A stretch of 64,000 nucleotides of DNA, from the IMG/VR virus record IMGVR_UViG_2974586258_000001, positions 58,964-122,963 of that record, one strand, 5' to 3'. Shown here piece by piece: positions 10,474 to 60,045 of this stretch (positions are counted from its first letter, which is position 1; the number at the start of each line of letters is the position of its first letter). The position numbers and the translations under genes were made by a program. Source of the DNA: a virus (Duplodnaviria; Caudoviricetes). Below the pieces are notes generated by a model. It saw nothing but the letters and a program-made list of their open reading frames with translations. It ran no database searches and was not told where the DNA came from.

Positions 10474-10773
10474 CTTTTATGTTCGGAAAGGCTCGCTAGA
10501 CCTATCCCGCATCACTTATGTTTATCAACATTAGCTGCTGCTCTATGTCTCCATAGAAGTTCAGACTATATCATCCACAACAATATGTTGCGGCCTACCG
10601 TTTCGAACACCATTAGCTTGTGTCCTACACCGCTACATTCATCACGGCTAGTCGTTGGGCATTTAGAAACAAATGTTTCATTTAGCACAGGATTGTCCTT
10701 AACTTAATACTAGGAGTTTCCCTGTTTAGGTAGGTTTGCTACACTAATCACTTAATGTAGGGGCTACAATTTA
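10474..10773 (-). mobile_element. group I intron without ORF in terL (300 nt)
   Basis: Exon 1 ends in U with P1 GGGU/GCCC; intron ends in G; P7 elements AACGACUAG and GAUAUAGUCU; P10 UUGUA/UACAA; splicing restores HQG-LQYSFVGFDE. Confidence 0.92.
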
Positions 10774-11146
10774 ACCCTTGATGGTTGGCCTCGGCTGTAT
10801 CTTCGTGCTCTAAGTGGGTGTATTTAAGGTTCCCACCACCTGTTCCTTCGAAAATAATCTCCATGTCTTTTTCACGGATTCTCGGATTAAGTGGTCTGAA
10901 AAGTTTCTTGCTTTCTGTAAACAATCCTCCGGCACCTTTAAGGGGGCCAGTTGTTCTTCGAAACATTACACCTTCAAAATTAGGGTCTTGATATGCGTGT
11001 TTTAATGCTTTTATTAACAGAAGTCTCGACTTGCCACTACCTGCGGCACCGCCGTATATCATTACATCTACTTTTGTATCAAAAGCTTTTCGTTGTTTTC
11101 CCTCTTGAGGGGCTAAATTAACAACATTATTTTGTTTAGTTGCCAA
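10774..11146 (-). CDS. terL: terminase large subunit, exon 1
   Basis: PQEGKQ adenine-binding motif and Walker A GGAAGSGKS; spliced product is 513 aa. Confidence 0.9.
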
Positions 11147-15014: not shown

Positions 15015-15419
15015 CTACTCTCCAATCTTACCTAGTTCATTAAGAGTATCAACGCACACATCATTTGTCAACCCTGCTTTTGAATTTATATACTCTTCCA
15101 GATTTTGATTTGCAATGTCAGCTTTTTGTTTTTCTTTATCAAGCAACTCTTTCAGTGATTCTTGTTTTTCTTTTGATTTGTCGGACAACTCTTGTAGTCT
15201 AATATTCTGTTCATTTAATTTAATCTGAAGTTGTTCAATAGAAGCATTGCTAACTTTAAGGCGTTCTTCAACCTGAACATTCTTCTGCTCTGCAAGAGCT
15301 AGTTCTGATTCAAGGAGACTGGTACTGACATTTAGATAAAATATTGTGGCTATCAAGATTGCAATCAAAGATTGAACCCAGTATTTTTTAATAAATTCAA
15401 GTACAAGTTTTAGTTCCAT
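15015..15419 (-). CDS. i-spanin (Rz-like)
   Basis: N-terminal TM helix, long coiled coil, C-terminal Cys. Confidence 0.75.
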   Translation of the reverse strand: MELKLVLEFIKKYWVQSLIAILIATIFYLNVSTSLLESELALAEQKNVQVEERLKVSNASIEQLQIKLNEQNIRLQELSDKSKEKQESLKELLDKEKQKADIANQNLEEYINSKAGLTNDVCVDTLNELGKIGE

Positions 15420-15441
15420 ATGCTTTCCTTGTGTTGTGGGT

Positions 15442-15478
15442 AAAATAAAAGCCCCGAATCACGAGGAAACGAGGCTTG
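15442..15478 (-). terminator. intrinsic terminator after tRNA
   Basis: AAGCCTCG...CGGGGCTT followed by TTATTTTT. Confidence 0.7.
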
Positions 15479-15494
15479 TTGGTTAAATTTGAAT

Positions 15495-15584
15495 TGGTAG
15501 CCCTGTTCGGTAACGATCCGAAGTAACCCACTTATCTGGTGTACGAGTTTATAAATCTCGGTACTTTCCTTAAGCTACAGGGCC
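15495..15584 (-). tRNA. atypical tRNA with UAU anticodon (Ile) and long variable arm
   Basis: Acceptor GGCCCUG/CAGGGCU + ACCA, D stem GCUU/AAGU, anticodon loop UUUAUAA, T stem UUCGG/CCGAA. Confidence 0.75.
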
Positions 15585-15599
15585 ATTAAATTAATATAA

Positions 15600-15920
15600 A
15601 AACAAAGGATGGTAGGCCATCACCCCGCAACAAAGACAGGAATCAAAAGATTATGTGTCTACGCCCTAGTTGTGTTATATCCGCATGATTTCTCAGAGGG
15701 AGATATAACAAATGATAATAATTCACTTAGACGGATCACTCTTCCTTGTCTCTTGGCTTTCAGTGATCGATTAAAGAGACAGCAGTCTACATTTTATGCC
15801 GATAATAGATATGCAACCTTTCTTTATTCTTGTAAGGCTCAAGTTTACCAGTCTCTCTTTTATCTTGCAGAGACCAACAAGAACCTATTCTTAGCAAGGT
15901 CATAGGATTTTAAAACCTAT
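15600..15920 (-). ncRNA. putative structured ncRNA with several pseudoknots
   Basis: Many 5-9 bp helices with G-U pairs favouring the minus strand; own promoter; no credible ORF. Confidence 0.65.
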
Positions 15921-15926
15921 ATGTTT

Positions 15927-15955
15927 ATATTATCAAAATTATCTTGAAATTTCAA
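15927..15955 (-). promoter_or_regulatory. sigma70-like promoter for ncRNA/tRNA
   Basis: TTGAAA-17 nt-TAATAT; palindrome CTTGAAATTTCAAG overlaps the -35. Confidence 0.65.
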
Positions 15956-15991
15956 GTACAAAATTAAATATCAATACAAATACCCTACATA

Positions 15992-16414
15992 TTACCACCA
16001 AAGATTATTGTAATGTTTTGCAAACAAATCTAAACCTTCTCGTTTCTTTTTATCCCAATCTTCCATATCTTTACGATATTTATCGTACCCTTCTTGATTT
16101 GAAACTAAACAAAAACCCTCTGACTTATCAGATGACAACTCAAATCCAATTTTGTATGATGAAACGTCTGGTTCATTTTTATCATCAAATGCAAAAATCA
16201 TCTTATCCAAGATTTCAAACCATTTATCTGATTGTGGTCCATCATCGTAATTATCATCAAAAATAGGAACACCGTAAGCCTTTCCGTTAATATCCCGCTC
16301 TTTCAGTGTATCCCGAAACTTTACAAGTCCAGCAAGGATAATCGTGGAAAGTGTGTTATCAAGAGAGTAAGTATCTTTATAACTAAAAACTGGCTTACCT
16401 TTGTGGATACGCAT
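15992..16414 (-). CDS. conserved phage hypothetical protein
   Basis: D.YSLD.TL..II...L..F and GL.LF...Y..LWW motifs. Confidence 0.7.
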   Translation of the reverse strand: MRIHKGKPVFSYKDTYSLDNTLSTIILAGLVKFRDTLKERDINGKAYGVPIFDDNYDDGPQSDKWFEILDKMIFAFDDKNEPDVSSYKIGFELSSDKSEGFCLVSNQEGYDKYRKDMEDWDKKKREGLDLFAKHYNNLWW

Positions 16415-24139: not shown

Positions 24140-24206
24140 AATATTTTTGCTAATCTATAAACAATATTAACATGGAAATTATAAAATGTCAAGGTAGTTT
24201 ATAAAA

Positions 24207-58077: not shown

Positions 58078-60045
58078 ATGAATCTATTTAAAAACGATGG
58101 TCAAATCAATTATGAAGATTTGGGAGATATTATATGGACATTAAGAAACCACAGCATCAATAAACGACCACCAAACGATAACATTCCGAATCACATGATG
58201 GTGGCTCATGAAAGGCACCTTGCCTTGCTTAAACAAGCTATTGAAATGATACGTTTTGATTATCAGAGAGAAAGTTATTTGTGGTACAAACTAAATAGAG
58301 AAGAAAATAGAAATGACAAACTAGAAGAAATAATTAAAGACCTAACCGAGGACAAAGACAAACTTAAATCAGAAGTTAAGACACTAAAAGAAAAGATTCA
58401 AGAAGCACAAGTAACAGCAGGATTGTTTATTCAGAGTGTCAAAGATAAACTACCAAGTTGGTTTAGTAAGGAGAAATAGTATGAGTTGGAATTGGTATGT
58501 TAATAGAGATACCATCAAAATTAAAGTAGAAGAACGCTCTTGGGAACAACCAGAAGAAGTATATAACGAAGATGTTGACAATTATGAAGAAACAGATAAT
58601 AATGTAACAAAGTATGATATTGAGTGCAAAGTTGAAATTAACGGAAAAGAGATTAAGCACTATACTAAATTGTCTGCTTTTCTTCGTGAGTTTGTAAATA
58701 AAAGTGTTGTATCAAACTATGCTGATTGGTATGGCGAAAGCTATAAAGATACAGGAATAAAGTATATTGCAATCACAAAATCTTGGCATTATAACCTAAC
58801 AGATTTCTACCCATTTACCTGCTCTTGCGGTGTTGCAGGATGTTCTTCAATCTGGGACGGTATCCATGTCAAATGGCGTAAGAACAGTATCGAGTGGAGG
58901 ATCAAAGATAAGCGTGATGGATATGAAAAGATTCTAGATAAAATGTTTTATTCTTTTGATCGAGAACAATATGAACAAGAAGTCTTGACAGCATACCAAA
59001 CATTGTATAAACTTGTTGAAAATAATCCAGAAAACGAAAGTGCTTGGATTGTTGAGGAGTTTAAAAGTAAGATTTAAGGAGGAATAATGATGAATTTTGT
59101 AGTTTGGTTAATTTTATGTATTGGGCTTTATATTCTGCCCGCAGGTATAGGTGCTTTTATTAATCTAGATTGGTCATATTTAGATTTTACAACATGGTCT
59201 ATTGAAGCGCGTGTCATATACATTGCTGTGGTTATTGGCTGCACAGTAATATGTGCAACTGATGGAGTGTAAACACAATGACAAAACATTATAATCCTAA
59301 TGACTACTGTTTCCTCTGCCAAACAGATGAAGGTTATGTCTTGGCACACAATGAAGTTTCTGATATAATTACTAGTGTCCAGAATCCAGATAAAGTTCTT
59401 GGGTATACAAAAGATTTCAACGAGATTTGCAAACTGTTTACTGAATGTCTTGACATCAAAATCAAAGGCTACTATAATGTAGGAGACAAGGTTAGTTATG
59501 GTAATTGTCAATATTTTGTTCTTGAAGTTGGGCAAAATGCTGAAGGTAATTTGCAAGAGTTAATTGTCGGTCGATAAATAAAGGAGGAAAATGATATGCA
59601 AACAAGTATGAGTTGTGTTAAGATTAATACACTTATGGACACACAATTGGTATATCCGGAAGTCATTCGTGAACATCTTGAAAGACTTTATGAAGTAGCT
59701 AAGAGTAACTATGTTTACAAGAACCGAAAGAAGTTCAATTTTATGAAATTTGGGTATGATTCAGAAAAAGTCTTGAAACAACAGTTTGAATCTATCTTCA
59801 AAGATTATCGTGAACTTCATAAGGACATTGATTCACTAAAACATTTGCATTGTCTTGAGCCATGGCAGGTGTCAGAAATGAAACGACTAATGAAAATCTA
59901 CAATTGCCTTGTTGCATTACAGAAAATTATCCGGTTGTACTTGTTCTCTGATAATCCGGTACAAGTAGATTACAATACTGTGTCTTGGTTAAACTTCTTT
60001 TATAAAAACGAAGGAGAGATTCGTAGTTATATCAAGAATGTTTAA
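58078..60045 (+). other. cluster of hypothetical genes
   Basis: ORFs 58078-58479, 58436-59077, 59087-59272, 59278-59577, 59596-60045 behind a TTGACA promoter at about 58019. Confidence 0.6.

Follow-up and report, generated by a model that had tools for sequence, protein, structure and literature searches.

Exchangeable RNA cassettes in a putative non-coding transcription unit of a Plateaulakevirus-like phage

This study concerns positions 15444-15955, minus strand, of a 64,000-nucleotide (nt) stretch of phage DNA, referred to throughout as the window, which covers positions 58,964 to 122,963 of IMG/VR record IMGVR_UViG_2974586258_000001 and belongs to a phage genome of 122,963 bases that has direct terminal repeats. 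Our reading, to which we give a probability of about 0.5, is that these positions form one non-coding transcription unit consisting of an early-class promoter, a non-coding RNA of ~335 nt, a tRNA with anticodon UAU and a terminator. Judged by comparison of sequences, the region is a chain of exchangeable RNA cassettes, which individual phages differ in having gained, lost or exchanged for tRNAs. In related phages the shuffling also involves tRNA genes and, twice, a hairpin that resembles the abiF RNA motif. One of the cassettes is likely to fold as an H-type pseudoknot. The original prediction, made from the letters of the window, had been of a new multi-pseudoknot RNA of ~320 nt transcribed ahead of the tRNA. 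On the same comparison, the element is real, unnamed and non-coding, but it falls short of the original proposal in size, is more modular and has a much more restricted distribution.

The transcription unit and its cassettes

The region of interest occupies the gap between a gene of 140 amino acids (aa; 15992-16414) and the 90-nt tRNA(UAU) (15495-15584), and the local genes lie on the minus strand. The stretch matches eight GenBank records, all of them Aeromonas phages of or near the genus Plateaulakevirus, seven at 90-95% identity. Our comparison set holds eight distinct sequences, namely the window and seven relatives (Aeromonas Plateaulakevirus-like phages and environmental contigs), identical copies having been removed: phiA019 is the same as phiA009, DL as TS9, PhAER-3 as PhAER-4 over this region, and contig L063 as the IMG/VR contig (L044).

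What follows the promoter differs from one relative to the next. In the window, the leader is succeeded by a pseudoknot in its version v1, by module B and by tRNA(UAU). phiA009 has the same order with a hairpin, H, between pseudoknot v1 and module B, and TS9 is laid out as phiA009 except that it ends in tRNA(CAU); this 76-nt tRNA, found in TS9 and DL at the position of tRNA(UAU), shares its first six bases. In phiA047 the leader is followed by a second version of the pseudoknot, v2, then by hairpin H, tRNA-Thr, module B and tRNA(UAU), while PhAER-3/4 begin with a micro-open reading frame (ORF) of 27 aa and continue with a shortened leader, pseudoknot v2, hairpin H, a 79-aa gene and tRNAs. The leader of PAc and of the metagenome contig L056 is followed by three tRNAs, without pseudoknot or module B, and L056 also has the abiF-like hairpin. 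Finally, the IMG/VR contig carries leader, pseudoknot v1, hairpin H, abiF-like hairpin and terminator, and has neither module B, nor a tRNA, nor an ORF of more than 36 aa.

Leader, pseudoknot and module B thus occur independently of one another in relatives, and because the modules separate in this way, we conclude that the region is not one large multi-pseudoknot RNA. The points of exchange can be located in some cases. Alignments place a junction at 15727-15733 (minus strand), where the window lacks ~60-70 nt that are found in relatives, consisting of a hairpin (GCCUGN-7 nt-ACAGGC) and a spacer; the hairpin is carried by five of the seven other distinct relatives. Wastewater contigs have other junctions, joining 15584 to 15816 and, with 159 intervening letters, 15717 to 15730. 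The RNA is 86% identical between the window and the IMG/VR contig, compared with 47% for the upstream protein.

Two of the neighbouring genes deserve comment here. In phiA047 only, a 335-aa homing-endonuclease-like gene (L003 439-1446) with CapR, treble-clef zinc-finger and T5orf172 domains stands directly upstream of the promoter, as would suit a site of frequent exchange. In PhAER-4 (L052, about 780-865 and 1098-1337) the 27-aa micro-ORF precedes the shortened leader, and the 79-aa gene belongs to PHROG 16842, of unknown function; given that this gene comes after pseudoknot v2 and hairpin H, the RNA module also occurs as the 5' region of a protein gene.

The original prediction had a promoter, TTGAAA-17-TAATAT, lying directly upstream, and a consensus scan locates it at 15955-15927 on the minus strand as a sigma-70-type promoter with an extended -10 element (upstream TG). 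The transcript would probably start near 15920, a position that we infer from this promoter. Its -35 (CTTGA) and -10 (TGATAaGAT) elements are invariant among five phages despite divergent, even unrelated, flanks, which argues for transcription from this minus-strand promoter. At the other end, a terminator scan identifies an intrinsic terminator (15444-15477, minus strand) that closes the unit, and its sequence is conserved in all eight distinct sequences compared. About eight similar minus-strand promoters occur in the genome, along the minus-strand early region. In the window this family (CTTGAAAATTTTAT...TGnTAATAT) is found at 2582, 6562, 11592, 15955, 21421, 24192 and 25625, always on the minus strand, and the member at 24192 stands ~25 nt ahead of tRNA-Pro. 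Plus-strand promoters start near 27 kilobases (kb), with the switch from minus to plus near window 26-27 kb.

The strand of the RNA had been assigned from G-U pairs, and this assignment holds in the comparison: helix changes on one side only, seen in the hairpin at 15850-75, in hairpin H and in the leader tip, yield G.U on the minus-strand RNA and never A.C, a pattern that fits the minus strand alone. This bears on the possibility that the element acts as DNA, whether as a replication origin, a recombination or homing site, or inverted repeats bound by a protein. Such an element would account for the inverted repeats in an AT-rich intergenic region, for the word GTCTCT/AGAGAC recurring in two helices and for the locus being an exchange site. 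We nevertheless consider it very improbable, given that the one-sided changes produce G.U on one strand only, that pseudoknot v2 lacks the repeated word, that the unit has a promoter and a terminator, and that the switch in promoter direction lies elsewhere, near window 26-27 kb.

The stretch upstream of the tRNA is also non-coding, as had been supposed. No ORF of at least 30 aa is shared in frame, on either strand, among the eight sequences; the window's own 98-aa antisense ORF and 38-aa sense ORF have their frames broken in relatives, the antisense one in every relative. A protein-coding reading was dropped because no reading frame is kept in the relatives.

The pseudoknot and the leader hairpin

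The segment from 15734 to 15781 (minus strand), ~48 nt long, can form an H-type pseudoknot. Stem S1 (15781-74/15754-47) consists of eight base pairs (bp), all Watson-Crick, and is crossed by stem S2 (15768-62/15740-34) with seven perfect pairs, the loops measuring 5, 7 and 6 nt. Both the interleaved order of helices that characterises this class (5'S1, 5'S2, 3'S1, 3'S2) and loops of adequate length are present in the sequence, and the fold is a predicted one. Dinucleotide shuffling of the 63-nt segment from the window produced crossing helices to equal those of 8+7 bp in 3 of 1000 shuffles and, with bulges allowed, in 1 of 500; for the three relatives that share pseudoknot v1, between 0 and 3 of 1000 shuffles reached the crossing pair. 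S1 closes with U-A in two of these sequences, the window and TS9, and with C-G in the other two, phiA009 and the IMG/VR contig.

There is a competing pairing, 11 nt long and 91% complementary, between 15854-15864 and 15769-15779, which would set the loop and 3' strand of the hairpin at 15850-75 against the 5' strand of S1. The change that is compensated within S1 breaks this long-range pairing in phiA009 and the IMG/VR contig.

Pseudoknot v2, of phiA047 and PhAER-3/4, has GGUUGC/GCAACC crossing GUGGAUCU/AGAUaCCAC in the same order as in v1. It shares almost no stem sequence with v1, yet the topology is the same, and the loop words TAGAC...TAA(G)TYGA...GAAGA are common to both versions, a combination with no other occurrence in the genome or among the other loci examined. 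A covariance model built from v1 alone put GGUUGC/GCAACC into the columns of S1. When v1 and v2 are placed in one model-fitted alignment, S1 is 100% paired, with four of its eight pairs changed on both sides, and its covariation score is 0.326, as against 0.137 in shuffles (none of 500 reaching the observed value) and 0.03-0.07 in slid controls, whose highest value is 0.067. At the place of S2, v2 carries a different, bulged helix of 8 bp. The scores of S1, S2 and sequence-only models do not tell the structures apart.

The second feature with comparative support is the leader hairpin (15884-15906, minus strand), CCUAU...AUAGG, which is present in all eight sequences (six distinct rows) and whose tip takes one of two forms, CUU-NNU-AAG or CC-UUCN-GG. 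Across the alignment 97.9% of its cells are paired, and one tip pair covaries, being C-G in three and U-A in three, a result that 24 of 500 shuffles reach. A rival helix in the leader, GAACC/GGUUC, is equally compatible with the sequences.

Our conclusion from these comparisons is that stem S1 and the tip of the leader hairpin bear a selection-like signature, and that one pseudoknot is credible as a likely fold. Several pseudoknots had been proposed. The one of 8 x 7 bp is favoured by the shuffles, by the compensatory pair and by the topology of v2, while the two others, taken up below, are either without comparative support or contradicted.

A number of observations weigh against our reading of the unit, and against the pseudoknot in particular. 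The comparison of v1 with v2 presupposes that the two are homologous, and the alignment was fitted to the structure. Taken alone, the pseudoknot of v2 is ordinary, its score being reached by 77 of 500 and 59 of 500 shuffles, and local chance tests gave 599 of 20000 for its S2 and 2261 of 20000 for its S1. Within v1, S2 is invariant, and a covariance model bearing S2 left the S2 of v2 unaligned (46.9/44.1 bits, versus 46.3/43.6 bits with the S1 model). Nested minimum free energy (MFE) z-scores of the pseudoknot segments range from -0.1 to -1.4, RNAalifold shows no net covariation (+0.31 kcal/mol), and module B has no informative substitutions; as its stems never vary, they test the structure neither for nor against. 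The eight distinct sequences come from one narrow phage group, so the covariation reflects very few events. It is important to note, too, that the cassettes are dispensable, pseudoknot and module B being missing from PAc and L056, that a plasmid search found no similar sequence, and that the window and its own genome contain no match to abiF at E values up to 10. The four sequencing runs over the locus are contigs, and the RNA libraries span the flanking genes too.

Part of this evidence is what one would expect of a non-functional mosaic spacer, that is, recombination debris between tRNA cassettes in which hairpins and crossing stems are incidental or relics of junctions. The cassettes are dispensable and shuffled, a homing-endonuclease-like gene adjoins the phiA047 locus, the fold statistics of the whole region are weak and RNAalifold finds no net covariation. 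We hold this explanation to be unlikely, given that the RNA is better conserved than the upstream gene, that S1 and the leader tip contain compensatory pairs, that v1 and v2 share topology and loop words, and that the unit of the IMG/VR contig retains its promoter and terminator although the RNA is all there is to express.

Other helices, module B and searches for known families

The seven pairings on which the multi-pseudoknot proposal was built are all present in the minus-strand RNA; they differ in how they fare in relatives. The helix that was thought to enclose the pseudoknot (15789-85/15732-28, five pairs) occurs in the window only, the relatives reading GTCCA, and it uses bases created by the window's deletion junction. 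The proposed crossing of 15827-33/15877-83 by 15815-20/15834-39 has the pairs it calls for and is ambiguous on comparison. The two helices, UUCUUGU/ACAAGAA (15883-77/15833-27, seven pairs) and AGCCUU/AAGGUU (15839-34/15820-15, six pairs, one of them G.U), lie within 15815-15886 on the minus strand, round an optional hairpin. TS9 has two bases of AAGGUU changed without compensation, which partly breaks 15839-34/15820-15, and RNAalifold prefers a competing helix, AGGUUC/GAGCCU (15886-81/15840-35, minus strand).

The optional hairpin itself, GGUCUCU/AGAGACU (15850-15875, minus strand), has 7 bp, the first pair being G.U, and is predicted in four of four sequences with one change from U-A to U.G. 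It is precisely absent from PhAER-3/4, and the deletion there leaves AGGUU-CUUG-AGCCU, such that the competing helix becomes a tetraloop hairpin. At the 5' end of the RNA, RNAalifold predicts a terminal hairpin, UAGGUUUU/AAAAUCCUA (15903-15921, minus strand), overlapping the next hairpin; it is not conserved, being broken in the IMG/VR sequence and absent in PhAER-3/4.

Module B comprises three hairpins on the minus strand. The first (15673-15710, paired as 15710-02/15681-73) has nine perfect pairs and a 20-nt loop, and its stem is invariant in the four distinct carriers. Its loop CCCU can pair with AGGG at 15667-64 in the window, as had been noticed, and this pairing is broken in phiA047, which has CCAU and no compensating change. 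The second (15634-15660), AGACA..AAUC-UUUU-GAUU..UGUCU, is taken from the MFE fold and its stems are invariant. The third, found by the terminator scan at 15598-15621, has five pairs followed by CTTTGTTTTT, a U-run that makes it a weak terminator-like site before the tRNA; its stem is weakened in TS9.

A terminator-like hairpin immediately before a tRNA, in an RNA that lies between promoter and tRNA, raises the possibility of a cis-acting tRNA leader that protects the 5' end, guides processing or tunes read-through at 15621-15598, and so sets the level of the tRNA. The two mutually exclusive folds of the leader hairpin, each fitting all sequences, and the leader's standing alone before the tRNAs in PAc and L056 would both be in keeping with such a role. 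Three observations make us sceptical, and we regard a leader of this kind as rather unlikely. The unit of the IMG/VR contig has leader and pseudoknot but contains neither a tRNA nor a gene for them to control; the tRNA-Pro of the window's own genome has a similar promoter ~25 nt upstream and no such leader; and in PhAER-3/4 it is a protein gene that the pseudoknot precedes.

Taken as a whole, the region is only mildly unusual statistically. On the minus strand its MFE z-score is -1.95, at least equalled by 1 of 100 shuffles; the plus strand scores -1.32, at least equalled by 8 of 100. There are four perfect stems of at least 7 bp, compared with 1.24 +/- 1.10 in shuffles, 23 of 500 of which reach four.

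That the element belongs to no named family is borne out by Rfam 15, insofar as no known family reaches threshold. At gathering thresholds the only match in the whole window is a group I intron elsewhere, and at E values up to 10 the tRNA and CRISPR-DR34 are the sole matches within 15300-16100, the latter falling on the 9-bp hairpin of module B and scoring 18.4 bits where 35 are required (E 1.3). Pseudoknot v1 on its own and pseudoknot v2 each have no match in Rfam, and in the relatives only tRNAs exceed threshold inside the unit. A group I intron reading of the stretch was dropped, as the sole intron is at 10541-10783; that intron, on the minus strand, is a full-length model match with 85.3 bits and E 2.7e-20. 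A transfer-messenger RNA (tmRNA) was dropped as well: ARAGORN gives two tRNAs and no tmRNA in the window, in agreement with the failure to see tmRNA features in the first place.

We can now return to the idea of a single ~320-nt multi-pseudoknot RNA that works as a unit in the manner of GOLLD or ROOL. In its favour are the presence of every pairing listed, an MFE z-score of -1.95 on the minus strand and the position next to a phage tRNA. It is already contradicted by the modular distribution, however, and beyond this the enclosing helix is confined to the window, phiA047 breaks the loop-AGGG pairing, comparison leaves the third pseudoknot ambiguous, and Rfam, with GOLLD and ROOL among the families scanned, yields no match. 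We therefore think it very unlikely.

The CRISPR-DR34 match raises a further alternative, namely that the hairpin at 15673-15710 is a solitary mimic of a clustered regularly interspaced short palindromic repeat (CRISPR), in other words an RNA anti-CRISPR. CRISPR-DR34 is the hairpin's best Rfam match, and in PMC10651486 RNA anti-CRISPRs (Racrs) are, as here, solitary hairpins in a non-coding unit downstream of a phage promoter with no cas genes nearby. Against this, the likeness of our hairpin to CRISPR-DR34 is sub-threshold, at 18.4 bits versus 35 and an E value of 1.3 over just 801 bases; there is no second copy and no array; and a term search of PMC10651486 found neither 'Aeromonas' nor 'II-C'. 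We rate this as the least probable of the alternatives, and a highly improbable one.

Wider searches were made with several parts of the element. A 16-mer scan of viral contigs returned 28 stretches, of which one was a true relative and the rest were chance or unrelated repetitive coding sequence. An 18-mer scan returned 38 stretches, only the already known contig being true, and a 17-mer from module B returned 11, none of them true. The pattern of hairpin H had one match among viruses, which was known, and one in a Lachnospiraceae contig without further likeness. In metagenomes the leader pattern returned nine stretches, two of them true and one of these two identical to the IMG/VR contig. 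The flanking proteins led, in viral contigs, to the same single contig and to six more distant loci without an RNA homolog. The phage collection supplied eight records, to which queries with module B and pseudoknot v2 added none, and BLAST of four query regions against 108 loci (810,732 bases) found only known relatives. In the phage's own genome we found no paralogs except for the promoter likeness; with model R1 each relative's genome proved to have a single copy and PAc to have none, a 16-bit match elsewhere excepted. Among the literature on Plateaulakevirus, vB_AdhM_TS9 and Aeromonas-phage tRNA or noncoding RNA, no title or abstract opening concerned this RNA.

Possible roles and comparison with known systems

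Cleavage by RNase P at the 5' end of a tRNA is standard tRNA biology. We propose that the unit would be transcribed early and that such a cut at the 5' end of its tRNA would free the RNA upstream; some transcripts could also stop at the weak terminator of 15621-15598. Pseudoknot and module B would thereafter survive as small, stable RNAs and constitute a cargo of their own. The unit of the IMG/VR contig consists of promoter, RNA and terminator only, which suggests that the RNA is made for its own sake and is not the leader of a tRNA or gene.

As to what such cargo might do, we offer a guess that has a real, though minority, chance of being right: the cassettes may act as decoys that bind a host RNA-binding protein, for example a defence or toxin protein. 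Three things incline us to it: the cassettes move in company with tRNAs at an accessory hot spot, the pseudoknot keeps one topology in both of its sequence versions, and the units of two relatives hold a hairpin that contains the words conserved in the abiF antitoxin. A more elaborate version would have a swappable array of decoys against host abortive-infection RNA-binding proteins, in which v1 and v2 are alleles that mimic different antitoxin RNAs, the abiF-like hairpin is an orphan mimic of the AbiF antitoxin, and the tRNAs, including the long-armed tRNA(UAU), replace or act as decoys for tRNAs under attack. Taken in full, this version strikes us as quite unlikely; if it were true, the array would make the phage tRNA locus an RNA-only island of counter-defence.

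The abiF-like hairpins lie outside the window, in two relatives, just before the terminator of the unit (L056 1266-1303 and L044 2391-2428). They score 25.4 and 20.3 bits respectively, below the cut-off of 37 for RF03085. Each keeps the words AAGCCUCU...GCUCAAAU that are conserved in the family, and has its AU-rich outer stem paired. The units of five GenBank relatives contain no abiF match, and the 13.4-kb IMG/VR fragment no Abi_2 gene. The hairpin may be an orphan antitoxin mimic.

ToxI-type antitoxins are pseudoknots. The RNA antitoxins and their phage mimics (abiF RNA, type III ToxI and phage pseudo-ToxI) are small, compact, protein-binding RNAs, many of them pseudoknotted: according to PMC12373285, the abiF-motif RNA is an antitoxin that neutralises the AbiF toxin by direct binding, and PMC3475682 reports escape of a phage from ToxIN by RNA mimicry. 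Our pseudoknot matches no Rfam antitoxin family and, unlike type III toxin-antitoxin RNAs, the region 15400-16000 lacks tandem and direct repeats and does not adjoin a toxin gene. A tandem-repeat antitoxin and a CRISPR mini-array were both dropped, as a repeat search found none.

Small RNAs of unknown role in phage tRNA regions have long been known, and the example described here behaves as exchangeable cassettes alongside tRNAs. Nearest in kind are RNA C and RNA D, small non-coding RNAs without a known role that phage T4 encodes in its tRNA transcription unit (PMC3014915); the likeness is one of genomic setting only, and phage group and host differ. The theme of large non-coding RNAs near phage tRNAs, as in GOLLD and ROOL, had also been invoked, and while the tRNA neighbourhood agrees with it, the lack of an Rfam match and the separation of the modules do not. 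GOLLD and ROOL RNAs are much larger. They are widely distributed with one conserved architecture, in contrast to the separable modules of 25-50 nt in one narrow phage group that we find here. In 10.1101/2024.12.08.627333 they appear as unexplained structured RNAs linked to phages and tRNA neighbourhoods.

A ribozyme of the hepatitis delta virus (HDV)-like or theta type was dropped as a candidate, both the position of the pseudoknot and the length of its loop being wrong for it. The HDV fold includes a P3 hairpin, for which the 7-nt S2-S1 loop is too short. Theta ribozymes, which are minimal HDV-like ribozymes, share a crossing-helix fold in a phage tRNA locus with our element, and according to PMC10879173 their cleavage site is within 5 nt of the tRNA 3' end. 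Our pseudoknot, by contrast, is ~150 nt upstream of the tRNA, and no tRNA comes before it in the unit.

If the cassettes do bind host defence proteins, they would link phage tRNA arrays to RNA-based counter-defence and provide a small, genetically tractable system in which to study it; if they are inert pieces of leader, the locus is an ordinary mosaic intergenic region.

The tRNA of the unit is itself unusual. A long variable arm is otherwise typical of Leu, Ser and Tyr tRNAs. The tRNA at 15495-15584 (minus strand; ARAGORN; 34.9 bits with the Rfam tRNA model) combines such an arm with the anticodon UAU, and shows an A.A mismatch closing the anticodon stem, G.U as the first acceptor pair and a non-standard T loop.

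The neighbours of the unit are an Rz-like spanin and PHROGs of unknown function. The gene that follows the terminator (15015-15419, minus strand) weakly matches Rz-like spanins (phrog_739, E 3.3e-05). TS9 and phiA047 each have an extra gene between the terminator and the spanin gene, of 191 aa (L002 2203-2778) and 96 aa (L003 2190-2480) respectively, and both of these show a weak N-terminal likeness, below thresholds, to P-loop proteins of the terminase or UvrD type.

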